Assembly: GCF_003334385.1 (NCBI RefSeq)
Contig: NZ_QOWN01000012.1
Length of the DNA stretch: 64,000 nt
Origin: Escherichia coli
GTDB lineage: Bacteria > Pseudomonadota > Gammaproteobacteria > Enterobacterales > Enterobacteriaceae
Reading direction: 5' to 3' (one strand)
Within the stretch, counting starts at the first letter, position 1. Every line of letters begins with the position of its first letter. This document shows positions 12,223 through 17,890 of the stretch, one piece after another. The notes beneath the pieces are model-generated. The model searched no databases. It worked only from the letters and a program-made list of their open reading frames with translations, and was not told where the DNA came from. Both the position numbers and the translations under genes were made by a program.

Positions 12223-12236
12223 TTAGCATTTCGGGT

Positions 12237-12266
12237 AAAAAGGTCGCTTCGGCGACCTTTTTTATT
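12237..12266 (+). terminator. intrinsic terminator after tktA
   Basis: aggtcgc ttcg gcgacct followed by tttttt. Confidence 0.6.
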
Positions 12267-12535
12267 ACCTTGATATGTCCGTTTGCGGACAAGCAATAGA
12301 TAAGGCGTGTTGTAGATCACAAATATTTATATGCAATAAATATCAATTATGTAATATGCATCACGATATGCGTATTGACATTTGTTGTTATATCTATAAC
12401 TCAATGTTATATAAGAAATTAATAATTCACTGTTTTCAAAACACCGGTTTCCCTGCTCAATTGCTTTCATTAAACCGCACGAGTATTTTATTTTTACCGC
12501 CGGACGGTACCCTAAAAATAAAATAAGGATAATTT

Positions 12536-12979
12536 ATGCGGCTTAGTGATTATTTTCCAGAATCATCAATCTCAGTTATACATTCAGCAAAAGATTGGCA
12601 GGAAGCTATCGATTTCTCGATGGTATCATTGCTGGATAAAAACTATATCAGCGAGAATTACATTCAGGCAATTAAAGATTCCACCATTAACAATGGCCCT
12701 TATTATATTCTCGCACCAGGCGTGGCAATGCCTCATGCGCGACCGGAATGTGGGGCGCTTAAAACCGGGATGTCTTTGACATTACTTGAACAAGGTGTTT
12801 ATTTTCCGGGGAATGACGAACCAATTAAATTACTCATCGGACTCTCTGCTGCCGATGCCGATTCGCACATTGGCGCTATTCAGGCGTTAAGTGAATTACT
12901 GTGCGAAGAAGAAATACTCGAACAACTCTTAACAGCATCATCAGAAAAACAATTAGCGGACATTATCAGCCGCGGATAA
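12536..12979 (+). CDS. cmtB: PTS mannitol-family EIIA component (cryptic)
   Basis: 147-aa ORF; PTS EIIA(Mtl)-like with a conserved His region (GVAMPHARPE); preceded by a roughly 300-bp AT-rich leader. Confidence 0.8.
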   Translation: MRLSDYFPESSISVIHSAKDWQEAIDFSMVSLLDKNYISENYIQAIKDSTINNGPYYILAPGVAMPHARPECGALKTGMSLTLLEQGVYFPGNDEPIKLLIGLSAADADSHIGAIQALSELLCEEEILEQLLTASSEKQLADIISRG

Positions 12980-13006
12980 TTACTCTCTCCTCTACAGGAT
13001 AATATT

Positions 13007-14409: not shown

Positions 14410-15687
14410 ATGAAAACCAAAGTTGCTGCTATTTATGGCAAGCGGGATGTCCGTCTGCGCGTATTTGAACTGCCAGAAATTACCGATAATGAATTACTGG
14501 TGAGTGTAATTTCTGACAGCGTCTGTTTATCGACCTGGAAAGCGGCGTTACTCGGTAGTGAACATAAACGCGTACCCGACGATTTAGAAAATCATCCGGT
14601 CATTACCGGGCATGAATGTGCCGGGGTTATTGTCGAAGTGGGTAAAAATCTCACTGGCAAATATAAAAAAGGCCAGCGTTTTGTATTGCAACCGGCGATG
14701 GGGTTACCAAGCGGATATTCAGCGGGCTACAGCTACGAATATTTTGGCGGCAATGCCACTTATATGATTATTCCCGAAATCGCCATTAATTTGGGCTGCG
14801 TATTACCGTATCACGGCTCTTATTTTGCTGCGGCGTCGCTGGCAGAGCCTATGTGCTGCATTATTGGTGCTTATCATGCCAATTATCACACCACGCAATA
14901 TGTTTATGAGCATCGCATGGGCGTCAAACCTGGCGGCAATATTGCACTGCTGGCGTGTGCAGGTCCGATGGGCATTGGCGCTATCGATTACGCCATTAAC
15001 GGCGGCATACAACCGTCGCGGGTGGTGGTGGTCGATATCGACGACAAACGTCTGGCGCAGGTACAGAAGCTGCTGCCGGTGGAACTGGCGGCCAGTAAAG
15101 GCATTGAGCTGGTGTATGTGAATACCAAAGGGATGAGCGATCCTGTCCAGATGCTGCGGGCGCTGACAGGAGATGCCGGGTTCGATGACATTTTTGTTTA
15201 TGCGGCGGTGCCTGCTGTCGTTGAGATGGCTGATGAATTACTGGCGGAAGATGGCTGTCTGAACTTCTTTGCCGGGCCGACGGATAAAAACTTCAAAGTG
15301 CCGTTTAATTTCTACAACGTCCATTACAACAGCACGCACGTCGTCGGTACATCTGGCGGTTCAACGGACGACATGAAAGAGGCGATTGCCCTTAGCGCCA
15401 CTGGGCAGTTACAGCCGTCGTTTATGGTGACCCATATCGGTGGCCTGGATGCGGTGCCAGAAACCGTGCTCAATCTGCCGGATATCCCTGGCGGTAAAAA
15501 ACTCATTTATAACGGCGTGACCATGCCGCTCACTGCCATTGCCGATTTTGCCGAAAAAGGCAAAACCGATCCGCTGTTTAAAGAGTTGGCGCGGCTGGTT
15601 GAGGAAACGCACGGCATCTGGAATGAACAGGCCGAGAAATATCTGCTGGCACAATTTGGCGTTGATATCGGGGAGGCCGCGCAATGA
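14410..15687 (+). CDS. yggP: medium-chain dehydrogenase/reductase (zinc-type polyol/alcohol dehydrogenase-like), function unknown
   Basis: 425-aa ORF; GHECAG zinc-ligand region and Rossmann-like ACAGPMGIGA. Confidence 0.75.
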   Translation: MKTKVAAIYGKRDVRLRVFELPEITDNELLVSVISDSVCLSTWKAALLGSEHKRVPDDLENHPVITGHECAGVIVEVGKNLTGKYKKGQRFVLQPAMGLPSGYSAGYSYEYFGGNATYMIIPEIAINLGCVLPYHGSYFAAASLAEPMCCIIGAYHANYHTTQYVYEHRMGVKPGGNIALLACAGPMGIGAIDYAINGGIQPSRVVVVDIDDKRLAQVQKLLPVELAASKGIELVYVNTKGMSDPVQMLRALTGDAGFDDIFVYAAVPAVVEMADELLAEDGCLNFFAGPTDKNFKVPFNFYNVHYNSTHVVGTSGGSTDDMKEAIALSATGQLQPSFMVTHIGGLDAVPETVLNLPDIPGGKKLIYNGVTMPLTAIADFAEKGKTDPLFKELARLVEETHGIWNEQAEKYLLAQFGVDIGEAAQ

Positions 15688-16649
15688 TGTCCCTGGCGTG
15701 GCCATTATTTCGCGTTACGGAACAGGCAGCGTTGGCTGCCTGGCCGCAAACCGGATGTGGCGACAAAAATAAAATTGATGGCCTGGCGGTCACCGCGATG
15801 CGCCAGGCATTAAACGACGTCGCTTTTCGTGGACGAGTGGTTATCGGCGAAGGAGAAATTGACCATGCGCCGATGCTGTGGATTGGCGAAGAGGTGGGCA
15901 AAGGCGATGGGCCAGAAGTCGATATCGCGGTTGATCCCATTGAAGGCACGCGGATGGTGGCGATGGGGCAGAGCAATGCGCTGGCGGTCATGGCTTTCGC
16001 CCCTCGAGATAGCCTGTTACATGCGCCCGATATGTATATGAAAAAGCTGGTTGTTAATCGGCTGGCGGCGGGCGCGATTGATCTGTCTTTGCCTCTGACG
16101 GACAACCTGCGCAACGTGGCGAAAGCGTTAGGCAAACCGCTGGATAAGCTGCGCATGGTTACGCTGGATAAACCGCGCCTGAGTGCCGCGATTGAGGAAG
16201 CAACACAGCTGGGCGTGAAGGTTTTTGCCCTGCCGGATGGCGATGTCGCCGCCAGCGTGCTGACCTGCTGGCAGGATAATCCTTACGATGTGATGTACAC
16301 CATCGGCGGTGCGCCAGAAGGCGTGATTTCTGCCTGTGCCGTTAAAGCATTAGGCGGGGATATGCAGGCCGAGCTGATTGACTTTTGCCAGGCTAAAGGG
16401 GATTACACGGAAAATCGGCAGATTGCAGAGCAGGAGCGCAAGCGTTGCAAGGCAATGGGCGTTGACGTTAACCGTGTGTACTCGCTCGATGAACTGGTGA
16501 GGGGGAACGATATCCTCTTTAGCGCTACGGGCGTGACGGGCGGTGAGCTGGTGAACGGTATCCAACAGACGGCGAATGGGGTGCGGACGCAGACATTACT
16601 GATCGGCGGCGCGGACCAAACGTGTAATATAATAGACTCCCTGCATTGA
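15684..16649 (+). CDS. yggF: class II (GlpX-like) fructose-1,6-bisphosphatase homologue
   Basis: 321-aa ORF overlapping the yggP stop by 4 nt; GlpX-family signature by recognition. Confidence 0.75.
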   Translation: MMSLAWPLFRVTEQAALAAWPQTGCGDKNKIDGLAVTAMRQALNDVAFRGRVVIGEGEIDHAPMLWIGEEVGKGDGPEVDIAVDPIEGTRMVAMGQSNALAVMAFAPRDSLLHAPDMYMKKLVVNRLAAGAIDLSLPLTDNLRNVAKALGKPLDKLRMVTLDKPRLSAAIEEATQLGVKVFALPDGDVAASVLTCWQDNPYDVMYTIGGAPEGVISACAVKALGGDMQAELIDFCQAKGDYTENRQIAEQERKRCKAMGVDVNRVYSLDELVRGNDILFSATGVTGGELVNGIQQTANGVRTQTLLIGGADQTCNIIDSLH

Positions 16650-16670
16650 TGGTGATCTATCGGAAGACCA

Positions 16671-17180
16671 ATGGCGACGCTGACAGAAGATGATGTGCTT
16701 GAGCAACTGGATGCACAGGACAATTTATTTTCATTTATGAAAACTGCGCATACCATTTTGCTCCAGGGGATACGCCAGTTTCTGCCGTCGCTGTTTGTCG
16801 ATAACGATGAAGAGATCGTGGAATATGCAGTGAAGCCGTTACTCGCCCAAAGCGGCCCGCTTGACGATATTGATGTTGCACTGCGTTTGATTTATGCGTT
16901 GGGGAAAATGGATAAATGGTTGTACGCCGATATCACGCATTTTTCCCAGTTCTGGCATTACCTGAACGAACAGGATGAAACGCCCGGATTTGCCGATGAC
17001 ATGACCTGGGATTTTATCAGCAACGTCAATAGCATAACCCGCAATGCGATGCTCTATGACGCGTTAAAAGCGATGAAGTTCGCTGATTTCTCCGTCTGGT
17101 CAGAGGCGCGTTTTAGCGGAATGGTCAAAACGGCGCTGACGCTGGCAGTAACGACCACCTTAAAGGAATTAACGCCGTGA
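16671..17180 (+). CDS. yggD: MtlR-like regulator family protein
   Basis: 169-aa ORF MATLTEDDVLEQLDAQDNLFSFMKTAHTILLQ...; resembles the mannitol operon repressor MtlR. Confidence 0.7.
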   Translation: MATLTEDDVLEQLDAQDNLFSFMKTAHTILLQGIRQFLPSLFVDNDEEIVEYAVKPLLAQSGPLDDIDVALRLIYALGKMDKWLYADITHFSQFWHYLNEQDETPGFADDMTWDFISNVNSITRNAMLYDALKAMKFADFSVWSEARFSGMVKTALTLAVTTTLKELTP

Positions 17181-17890
17181 AAATTGAATTAACGGTGAAT
17201 GGGCTGAAGATACAGGCACAGTACCAGAACGAAGAGATTGAAAATGTACATAAACCGTTGCTGCACATGTTGGCGGCCTTACAGACGGTAAATCCGCAGC
17301 GGCGTACGGTGGTTTTTCTTTGCGCTCCGCCGGGGACGGGTAAATCAACCCTAACCACCTTCTGGGAATATCTCGCGCAACAAGACCCGGAACTGCCCGC
17401 TATTCAGACGCTCCCGATGGATGGTTTTCACCATTACAATAGCTGGCTGGATGCGCATCAATTGCGCCCCTTCAAAGGCGCACCAGAGACATTTGACGTT
17501 GCGAAACTGACGGAAAATCTGCGCCAGGTCGTGGAAGGGGATTGTACGTGGCCGCAGTACGATCGACAAAAGCATGATCCTGTTGAAGATGCGTTGCACG
17601 TTACCGCACCACTCGTCATCGTCGAAGGAAACTGGTTGTTACTGGATGATGAAAAGTGGCTGGAGTTGGCATCTTTCTGCGATTTTTCTATTTTTATTCA
17701 TGCACCTGCTCAAATTCTGCGGGAGCGCTTGATTAGTCGTAAAATTGCGGGAGGATTAACGCGGCAAGTAGCCGAAGCATTTTATGCCCGCACCGATGGC
17801 CCCAATGTCGAGCGTGTGCTGATGAATAGCCGTCAGGCCAATCTGATAGTAGAGATGACTGAAGAAGGCCGGTATCACTTCACAAGCTGA
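17177..17890 (+). CDS. yggC: P-loop nucleoside/pantothenate-kinase-like protein, function unknown
   Basis: 237-aa ORF from GTG overlapping the yggD stop; Walker A motif APPGTGKST. Confidence 0.7.
   Translation: MKIELTVNGLKIQAQYQNEEIENVHKPLLHMLAALQTVNPQRRTVVFLCAPPGTGKSTLTTFWEYLAQQDPELPAIQTLPMDGFHHYNSWLDAHQLRPFKGAPETFDVAKLTENLRQVVEGDCTWPQYDRQKHDPVEDALHVTAPLVIVEGNWLLLDDEKWLELASFCDFSIFIHAPAQILRERLISRKIAGGLTRQVAEAFYARTDGPNVERVLMNSRQANLIVEMTEEGRYHFTS

Follow-up and report, generated by a model that had tools for sequence, protein, structure and literature searches.

A conserved gene block of Escherichia coli, cmtBA-yggPFDC, with the parts of a candidate phosphotransferase-linked pathway for a mannitol-like sugar alcohol

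The cmtB, cmtA, yggP, yggF, yggD and yggC genes of Escherichia coli lie side by side between tktA and epd, and for some thirty years the name 'cryptic mannitol' has been attached to the cmt genes. We analysed this block, cmtBA-yggPFDC, in a stretch of 64,000 nucleotides (contig NZ_QOWN01000012.1, hereafter the window), which is E. coli K-12, with bases 12000-18100 being 100% identical to strain C600. The block is conserved, selected and mobile, and most likely serves the uptake and breakdown of a mannitol-like sugar alcohol through a core of four proteins: the two components of a phosphotransferase system (PTS), the dehydrogenase YggP and the kinase YggC. Positions are from the listing of open reading frames (ORFs) in the window together with the RefSeq annotation of the almost identical K-12 record (C600), whose genes correspond one-to-one with the ORFs. 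The genes and intergenic regions are as follows.

10231-12222, + strand, tktA, the upstream flank
12223-12535, + strand, the AT-rich leader and predicted regulatory region of the operon, recognised by its low GC and its phylogenetic footprint
12536-12979, + strand, cmtB, a PTS enzyme IIA (EIIA) of the mannitol/fructose type, 147 amino acids
13007-14395, + strand, cmtA, a PTS enzyme IICB (EIICB) of the mannitol family, 462 amino acids
14410-15687, + strand, yggP, a zinc-dependent medium-chain dehydrogenase/reductase (MDR) of the SorE clade, 425 amino acids
15684-16649, + strand, yggF, a paralogue of class II (GlpX-type) fructose-1,6-bisphosphatase (FBPase), 321 amino acids, named 'glpX' in RefSeq
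16671-17180, + strand, yggD, an MtlR-fold protein, 169 amino acids, named 'fumE' in RefSeq
17177-17890, + strand, yggC, a P-loop kinase of the group of pantothenate kinase (PanK), uridine kinase (Udk) and phosphoribulokinase (PRK), 237 amino acids, with a GTG start
17891-18174, + strand, the yggC-epd intergenic region, site of a polymorphism involving an energy-coupling factor (ECF) transporter island
18175-19194, + strand, epd, the downstream flank

The six genes were described as co-directional and tightly packed in a first-pass annotation made from the letters of the window, and the ORFs and the K-12 annotation agree on this, with all six on the + strand and separated by 27, 14, -4, 21 and -4 bp. 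No terminator-like or promoter-like site above chance was found inside the block with a consensus scanner, which overlooked both the tktA terminator and the conserved cmtB promoter described below; no Rfam family matches the block, and no terminator-like site was found in the yggC-epd spacer (17891-18174). The same annotation had pointed to an AT-rich leader and first gene, and this is borne out: the 313-bp leader has a GC of 0.329 (0.244 in its core, 12300-12430), and only 0.5% of 313-bp windows across the 64 kb are as AT-rich. The cmtB gene has a GC of 0.423, and its GC at third codon positions (0.372) and codon adaptation index (CAI, 0.222) are the lowest of any gene in the set of 26 that was scored. 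Host-typical GC (0.48-0.57) is seen in the remaining five, whose CAIs of 0.26-0.32 are similar to epd (0.295) and argO (0.27) and far below tktA, pgk and fbaA (0.69-0.77), the CAI weights being the Sharp and Li values. The compositional anomaly is therefore real, but is confined to the leader and cmtB. Four further stretches of the window, as AT-rich as the leader (GC at or below 0.37 in 313-bp windows), are present at 3475-3989, 40650-41201, 58757-59126 and 60600-61001, the first two of which match the galP-metK and ubiI-gcvT intergenic regions.

A profile scan using one genome per species, with the six K-12 proteins mapped by tblastn, gave 80 loci from about 30 genera. CmtB, CmtA, YggP and YggC occur together in all 75 of the loci that are not cut by a contig end; these four are the invariant core, and YggF and YggD are lineage-specific accessories that are lost or replaced. 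This strongly conserved synteny agrees with the earlier proposal of a single catabolic unit. The arrangements are as follows.

Enterobacteriaceae (Escherichia, Salmonella subspecies, Citrobacter, Klebsiella spallanzanii, Raoultella, Enterobacter, Lelliottia, Buttiauxella and others): six genes, between tkt and epd
Hafnia: six genes, within the men locus
Serratia: six genes, downstream of an hrpA-like helicase gene
Yersinia, Providencia and Limnobaculum: six genes, at yet other sites
Five Rahnella species and Budvicia: the cassette without YggF
About 20 Vibrionaceae loci: a YcdX-type PHP phosphoesterase in place of YggF
Nine Clostridia loci: PRD/EIIA regulator, EIIA, YggC, EIICB, YggP

In the Clostridia loci the yggC gene lies between the genes for EIIA and EIICB, and the regulator is about 690 amino acids long. 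The filling of the YggF slot by an unrelated phosphatase in Vibrionaceae points to a conserved need for a phosphatase, and the similarity of E. coli YggP to its Clostridia counterparts (63-67%) is about the same as that to its Vibrio counterparts (64-67%), pointing to transfer between phyla. A transketolase gene is a recurrent neighbour, in several independent arrangements. Enterobacteriaceae have tktA upstream of the cassette, and four Vibrionaceae loci have tal-tkt just upstream of it. In V. mediterranei tkt follows the cassette after 16 bp, in Rahnella laticis a gene for class II fructose-bisphosphate aldolase together with tkt follows it directly, and in Anaerotalea a split tkt lies downstream with ptsI in between. 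The window has the block directly upstream of epd-pgk-fbaA, as the first-pass annotation stated, but this is not general, since, of 5426 complete E. coli genomes, no more than 2095 (39%) have yggC and epd contiguous as in K-12. A functional link to epd-pgk-fbaA deduced from adjacency was rejected on these numbers and on the unrelated sites occupied in Hafnia, Serratia, Yersinia, Providencia and Vibrio.

Within E. coli the block is present in all 5426 complete genomes, with a coverage of at least 80% in 5388, and the ratios of nonsynonymous to synonymous substitution rates (dN/dS) against E. albertii, Salmonella, Citrobacter and Klebsiella are 0.02-0.16 for the six genes and 0.03-0.04 for epd. 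In Salmonella the locus is accessory and patchy (PMC8715441). Orthologous 330-bp leaders have a GC of 0.27-0.40 in all Enterobacterales loci, and cmtB orthologues a GC of 0.40-0.47 (0.49 in one Rahnella locus, in which the start could not be fixed), and both remain AT-rich while the overall GC of the locus ranges from 0.39 to 0.56. The AT-richness is an old and maintained property that marks a conserved regulatory region rather than a recent import. A foreign origin or silencing by a nucleoid protein had been suggested from the AT-richness of the leader and first gene. On the second, published reporter and deletion data show an active, CRP-dependent promoter in K-12 (PMC3105977, PMC12412646). 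A recent foreign origin was rejected: low GC is seen only there and is conserved across genera, so it gives no sign of recent acquisition; five of the six genes are host-like in GC, dN/dS is low, and the atypical composition throughout that marks an island is not seen.

From the letters alone the six products had been assigned as a mannitol-family EIIA and EIICB, a zinc-dependent MDR, a GlpX-like bisphosphatase, an MtlR-like regulator and a P-loop kinase, and profile and structure searches uphold these family calls, those of YggD and YggC as probable, with a refinement for YggP. The first two proteins constitute, as judged by curated models and motifs, an intact mannitol-family PTS pair with both the His and the Cys of the phosphorelay. 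CmtB passes NF007358 (326 bits, cut-off 192) and has a GVAMPHARP motif carrying the phosphorylatable His, and CmtA passes both NF011663 (592.9 against 589) and TIGR00851 (480 against 468.4) and retains the EIIB motif VCDAGMGSSAMG with the phosphorelay Cys. GVAMPHARP and VCDAGMGSSAMG correspond to the EIIA His and EIIB Cys motifs known in MtlA.

The dehydrogenase is the most informative of the remaining proteins. YggP homologues carry the Pfam domains ADH_N and ADH_zinc_N, and the assignment to the MDR family stands, although YggP is more than a generic member: over 97-98% of its length it shares 45.8% identity with SorE of K. pneumoniae, 44.7% with that of Serratia and 42.4% with that of L. 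plantarum, and less than 30% with the next-nearest MDRs. The K. pneumoniae and L. plantarum sorE genes were checked and both lie within sorbose operons with mannose-type PTS genes. The catalytic Cys/His/Glu residues C39, H68 and E69 and the cofactor Asp D209 are invariant between YggP and SorE, whereas the substrate-loop segment differs (QPAMGLPSGYSAGYSYEYFGG in YggP, QANLQLPDRPDCPGYSFPWIGG in SorE); no close solved structure was found in a PDB search. By these comparisons YggP is a paralogue of L-sorbose-1-phosphate reductase (SorE) within the SorE clade. SorE works on the carbon adjoining the phosphate, turning a 2-ketose-1-phosphate into a hexitol phosphate or the reverse, and since YggP is 42-46% identical to genuine SorE it, too, probably acts on a sugar phosphate. 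The context is not that of sorE, the cmt block having a mannitol-family PTS, an MtlR-like protein and no short-chain dehydrogenase/reductase (SDR). Annotators had already noticed the linkage of these two genes, as is seen from the database name 'oxidoreductase linked to yggC'. Within yggP there is also an intragenic sigma-54 site at 14930-14946 (+ strand, CTGGCGGCAATATTGCA), directed towards yggF, which is an exact match to IS35 of a study by chromatin immunoprecipitation sequencing (ChIP-seq) (PMC4591121).

YggC passes NF006742 (504 bits) and the PRK09270 models, which describe only this uncharacterised family. Matches to the PanK and Udk models (E = 1e-13 and 2e-9) are under their cut-offs, and the nearest solved chain is 3c8u, deposited as a 'fructokinase' (E = 5e-21), followed by pantothenate kinases. 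Seven orthologues, drawn from three lineages, all retain the Walker A sequence PPGTGKST and the motifs DGFH and EGNW unchanged, and Pfam PF00485 (PRK) is recorded for the Vibrio and Clostridia orthologues. YggC has independently been predicted to be a 'sugar/polyol kinase', with experiments stated to be in progress (PMC3223725).

YggF passes the class II FBPase equivalog model TIGR00330 with 588 bits (cut-off 259) and matches solved GlpX (PDB 1ni9) with E = 5e-111. FBPase activity of YggF in vitro is attributed to Brown 2009 in two later papers, which also give it a minor growth phenotype and a lower catalytic efficiency than Fbp (PMC8719807, PMC10733421).

YggD passes the YggD-specific model NF007455 at 333 bits but falls under the cut-off of the MtlR subfamily model NF008234 (89 bits, cut-off 149). 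It matches the near-identical Shigella structure 3c8g from end to end (E = 4e-108), as well as the MtlR structures 6kcr (E = 3e-12) and 3brj (E = 5e-9), and Pfam PF05068 (MtlR) matches its orthologues. No similarity to class I or class II fumarases was found, the only matches being MtlR-type models in NCBIfam and MtlR-fold chains in the PDB. The position of YggD in the cassette, and the presence of a PRD regulator in its stead in Clostridia, accord with a role in regulation and suggest that YggD is a candidate MtlR-type regulatory partner occupying the regulator slot of the cassette across Proteobacteria. YggD is probably MtlR-like, as the first-pass annotation had it, but is a lineage-specific accessory rather than a universal member.

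A phylogenetic footprint of the leader was obtained from an alignment of 16 and then 26 leaders, the latter spanning about 14 genera, and the elements in or near it are as follows.

12237-12262, + strand, tktA intrinsic terminator, AAAAAGGTCGC-TTCG-GCGACCTTTTT, perfect inverted repeat of 11 nt, loop of 4 nt, then a T run
12306-12321, unstranded, CRP site 1, CGTGTTGTAGATCACA, a pattern match with 2 mismatches
12350-12365, unstranded, predicted second CRP-like site, TGTAATATGCATCACG, 2 mismatches, 44 bp from site 1
12461-12466, + strand, predicted -35, TTGCTT, with TTG invariant in the 26 sequences
12484-12489, + strand, predicted -10, TATTTT, with T1, A2 and T6 invariant in the 26 sequences
12484-12525, unstranded, inverted repeat, TATTTTATTTTTA / TAAAAATAAAATA, arms 12484-12496 and 12513-12525, 13 of 13 positions complementary

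The terminator, in the form GGGTCG...CGACCC plus a T run, is kept in 14 of 16 aligned genera. CRP site 1, when read on the opposite strand, is exactly the site beneath a cmtB-assigned CRP ChIP-seq peak in the enterotoxigenic E. coli strain H10407 (PMC4287617), and most other aligned genera have the closer-to-consensus sequence GTGATCTGAATCACA at this position; at the second site an ATCAC(A) half and a TTTG(C/T)A half are kept across genera. The -35 and -10 elements are 17 bp apart in 25 of the 26 sequences while the spacer sequence itself varies, and we read this TTGnTT-17-TATTTT (TAnnnT) pattern as a putative sigma-70 promoter with a predicted start near 12496. The cmtB promoter is activated by CRP (PMC3105977), and a PcmtA-gfp fusion is CRP-dependent and lowest on glucose (PMC12412646). 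With the ChIP-seq peak at site 1 and two CRP-dependent promoter fusions, the block is read as one CRP-dependent operon.

The inverted repeat overlaps the predicted -10, spans an A-rich tract and stops at the Shine-Dalgarno sequence; it may be an operator, an A-rich translation enhancer, or a chance occurrence. As RNA it could form a hairpin of -16.6 kcal/mol (z = -1.5), and a conserved RNA hairpin at 12484-12525 was rejected: RNAalifold gives no consensus structure, there is no Rfam match, and the observed percentage paired is matched in 21 of 500 shuffles and the covariation score in 86 of 500. Control of the CytR type, hinted at by the tandem CRP sites and by nucleoside induction, was likewise dropped, as the sequence between the sites is not conserved. 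A scan for high-affinity H-NS motifs gave no signal in the leader and was uninformative. The leader also contains an 83-codon ATG ORF with eight Cys codons (12275-12526, + strand). Its length is statistically unusual, being equalled in 15 of 5000 dinucleotide shuffles, but the ORF lacks a Shine-Dalgarno sequence, is not present outside Escherichia (Salmonella, Citrobacter, Klebsiella and others), and is treated as a chance ORF.

We read the block as a catabolic operon for a mannitol-like sugar alcohol, or for the matching ketose, with a rough probability of 0.45. The scheme is built on the PTS pair, the dehydrogenase of the SorE clade, the P-loop kinase that always accompanies these, and the bisphosphatase slot, which unrelated enzymes fill in different lineages, and from these parts we infer all of the steps that follow uptake. 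The PTS would deliver a polyol phosphorylated on its terminal carbon (a polyol-1-phosphate), and YggP, acting like SorE in reverse, would oxidise the carbon adjoining the phosphate to give a 2-ketose-1-phosphate. YggC would then phosphorylate the other end, and the resulting ketose-1,ω-bisphosphate would either be cleaved by a class II aldolase or lose its 1-phosphate to become a ketose-ω-phosphate. Removal of the 1-phosphate would fall to YggF in Enterobacterales and to the YcdX-like PHP phosphatase in Vibrionaceae, and the product would be usable by central sugar-phosphate metabolism (transketolase, glycolysis). YggD would be the regulatory partner, with Firmicutes using the PRD/EIIA regulator instead. 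This series of steps would be the simplest chemistry that uses all four parts. As the block is universal in E. coli, is under purifying selection, and is also found in Vibrionaceae and in Clostridia of the gut, a real nutrient that is outside the standard carbon-source panels very probably lies behind it.

A more elaborate version has the cassette as a 'phosphate-relocation' route of a kind not known to have been described, running from phosphorylation of a rare polyol at C1 by the PTS through a SorE-like enzyme, a P-loop kinase and a 1-phosphatase into the non-oxidative pentose-phosphate pathway. A heptitol such as volemitol or perseitol would fit as its substrate, passing through sedoheptulose-1,7-bisphosphate to sedoheptulose-7-phosphate, and this substrate accords with the transketolase, transaldolase and aldolase neighbours and with the activity of class II enzymes, which are known to have dual FBPase and sedoheptulose-1,7-bisphosphatase activity. 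We know of no characterised ketose-phosphate kinase among PanK/Udk/PRK-type P-loop kinases other than PRK itself, and consider this version unlikely in its full form.

The catabolic reading has precedents in known systems. Like cmt, mtlADR has a mannitol-family EIICB/EIIA, an MtlR-fold protein and a dehydrogenase acting on the PTS product, and E. coli mtl is controlled by CRP through several upstream sites, as is predicted for cmt. It differs in that the cmt EIIA is separate and encoded first, a SorE-clade zinc-dependent MDR replaces the MtlD family, and cmt has an additional P-loop kinase and class II bisphosphatase; moreover, the two systems coexist, side by side in Rahnella. The sor systems of Klebsiella and Lactiplantibacillus share with cmt a dehydrogenase (42-46% identity, common catalytic residues) that is encoded beside a PTS, which implies a sugar-phosphate substrate, but they have a mannose-family EIIABCD, a SorC regulator and the SDR SorD, and neither kinase nor phosphatase. 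In the gat system PTS uptake is followed by the zinc-dependent MDR GatD, a kinase, a ketose-1,6-bisphosphate and a class II aldolase, and in fruBKA the kinase FruK turns a PTS-made ketose-1-phosphate into a bisphosphate; both resemble the proposed cmt steps, but the proteins are non-homologous, with galactitol- or fructose-family PTSs, PfkB-type or PfkA kinases and no bisphosphatase. The glpFKX operon also includes a class II FBPase in a catabolic operon whose carbon enters below fructose-6-phosphate, although there GlpX is tied to glycerol uptake and glycerol kinase, with no PTS. The Clostridia cassettes resemble Firmicute mtlAFD (with a PRD-type MtlR) in their PRD/EIIA regulator, separate EIIA and EIICB, and depart from it in that a YggP-type MDR replaces MtlD and the yggC gene lies between those for EIIA and EIICB. 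The block thus follows the logic of mtl, sor, gat and fru, but combines protein families as none of them does.

Several observations weigh against a polyol operon of this kind. As the first-pass annotation had supposed, no substrate or pathway is assigned in the searchable literature. Among 198 Biolog compounds the PcmtA-gfp fusion peaked with uridine, bromo-succinic acid and inosine, and the reported inducers included neither a polyol nor a ketose (PMC12412646). The distances from the CRP sites down to the predicted start, about 138 and 182 bp, are too great for standard class I or class II activation, so that either a second upstream promoter or indirect action of CRP may be involved and the promoter model is probably incomplete. 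YggF is absent from five of the six sampled Rahnella species, from Budvicia and from the Clostridia loci; the kinase and the bisphosphatase may form a futile pair, and YggF may be only a gluconeogenic helper. Pfam PRK (PF00485) is not significant for K-12 YggC. YggD gave no ChIP-exo peaks in a published study, where it is labelled 'fumarase E' on the strength of a metabolomics screen that is cited second-hand (PMC8464067). Finally, the order of the YggP and YggC steps may differ from the one proposed, as may the direction in which YggP works.

Alternatively, the block could be a second route for D-mannitol, in which YggP converts mannitol-1-phosphate to fructose-1-phosphate, YggC converts this to fructose-1,6-bisphosphate and YggF yields fructose-6-phosphate for biosynthesis. 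This would be a special case of the chemistry proposed above, and it is favoured by the passing of mannitol-PTS models by CmtA and CmtB, the 52% identity of CmtA to canonical MtlA of Rahnella, and the reported hydrolysis of fructose-1,6-bisphosphate in vitro by YggF. We nevertheless think it improbable. The route would cost one ATP more than MtlD, every lineage checked has a canonical mtl system beside the cassette, and K-12 mtlA mutants are not known to grow on mannitol, hence the name 'cryptic'. D-mannitol was moreover both in the Biolog panel and tested separately, yet it was not reported as an inducer of PcmtA (PMC12412646). In five Rahnella species (loci L055-L059, about 13945-17820) the YggF-less cassette and canonical mtlA-mtlD-mtlR lie only about 1.4 kb apart, the cassette being upstream.

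A shorter pathway, in which only the PTS and YggP act (polyol phosphate to ketose phosphate, as in mtlAD) with YggF as a gluconeogenic helper and YggC as a regulatory or salvage kinase, is also doubtful. YggF is dispensable in several lineages, glpX serves as a helper FBPase in the glycerol operon, and K-12 YggC matches no sugar-kinase family at curated thresholds, all of which would be consistent with such peripheral roles. However, in the 75 uncut loci YggC is kept just as strictly as YggP and the PTS, and it is encoded between EIIA and EIICB in Clostridia, which is the pattern of a core step; in Vibrionaceae the place of YggF is taken by an unrelated phosphatase rather than simply lost; and SorE-type chemistry would yield a ketose-1-phosphate that needs further processing.

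The pathway could also run in the reductive direction, with the PTS phosphorylating a rare ketose at C1, YggP reducing the product to a hexitol phosphate as SorE does, and later steps taking place elsewhere. SorE, the closest named relative of YggP, works in this way, the mannitol PTS family is related to that of fructose, and both dehydrogenase clades carry the same Asp at the cofactor position. The cassette has no equivalent of SorD to process the hexitol phosphate, however, and once the ketose phosphate had been reduced there would be little use for a kinase and a 1-phosphatase, and we regard this direction as quite improbable. Deletion of sorE abolishes sorbose use in an ST131 strain and the resident chromosomal yggP gives no rescue on L-sorbose (PMC12817954), although lack of yggP expression could explain this equally well. 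L-sorbose, D-tagatose and D-psicose are on the Biolog plates. No ketose was among the inducers of PcmtA reported from the plate screen (PMC12412646).

That the block is a silenced foreign island or a functionless relic in E. coli, as the AT-rich leader and cmtB, the low CAI of all six genes, the historical 'cryptic' label, the patchiness in Salmonella and occasional pseudogenes and IS1 insertions might suggest, is very improbable and is largely refuted by selection and conservation, that is by the low dN/dS, universal presence in E. coli, host-typical GC of five genes and cross-genus persistence of the AT-rich segment, and by an active, CRP-dependent promoter and a ΔcmtA phenotype, a higher minimal inhibitory concentration of tobramycin (PMC3105977, PMC12412646).

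The cmtBA-yggPFDC genes are already annotated and are a known orphan, and the proposed pathway would constitute a new variant of PTS-dependent polyol catabolism. What is new here is the four-gene core, the relationship to SorE, the replacements of the phosphatase and the regulator, and the evidence against foreign origin and against meaning in the epd-pgk-fbaA adjacency; these comparative data narrow the problem to four core proteins. The identity of the nutrient would assign a function to a widespread family of SorE-like dehydrogenases and to the YggC/FrcK kinase family, would correct the doubtful names 'fumarase E', 'glpX' for yggF, and 'mannitol transporter', and might reveal a new entry of PTS products into central metabolism.

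The two ends of the block vary among E. coli strains. Three other annotated yggC-epd junctions (two in E. coli and one in Salmonella) have a five-gene ECF-transporter island on the opposite strand between yggC and epd (L002 7363-10439, L003 8380-11456, L009 12648-15733), which overlaps the 3' end of yggC; its products are the S and T components, two ATPases and a DNA-binding protein of the PPC/DUF296 type. The island is found in many E. coli strains and in other Enterobacteriaceae. K-12 YggC is almost identical to an island-bearing E. coli allele until about residue 165 and then diverges sharply, with 87% identity overall, which suggests a recombination breakpoint tied to the presence or absence of the island. 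A defect in K-12 yggC was considered and rejected, since the protein, although divergent in its C-terminal third, is full length with all invariant residues. In E. coli strain JL05 yggC has an internal stop (L002 6678-7391), and a few E. coli strains have IS1 copies that interrupt the leader or the block itself (NZ_AP027619.1, NZ_CM129872.1); these are occasional inactivations within a universally retained locus. The spacer downstream of yggC has a near-consensus CRP site upstream of epd (17965-17980, TGTGATGTGAGTCAGA, 1 mismatch), and is listed in a published study by systematic evolution of ligands by exponential enrichment (SELEX) as a constitutive promoter with H-NS. At the other end, the K-12-type tkt-cmtB leader is contiguous in 3569 of the 5426 E. 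coli genomes, about a third being without it. In an annotated example of the other leader type, a prohibitin-family gene follows the tkt terminator (L003 1769-2677), and the sequence corresponding to about 12262-12455 of the window is diverged, though still AT-rich and rich in CRP half-sites, with homology resuming at about 12455, just before the predicted -35.

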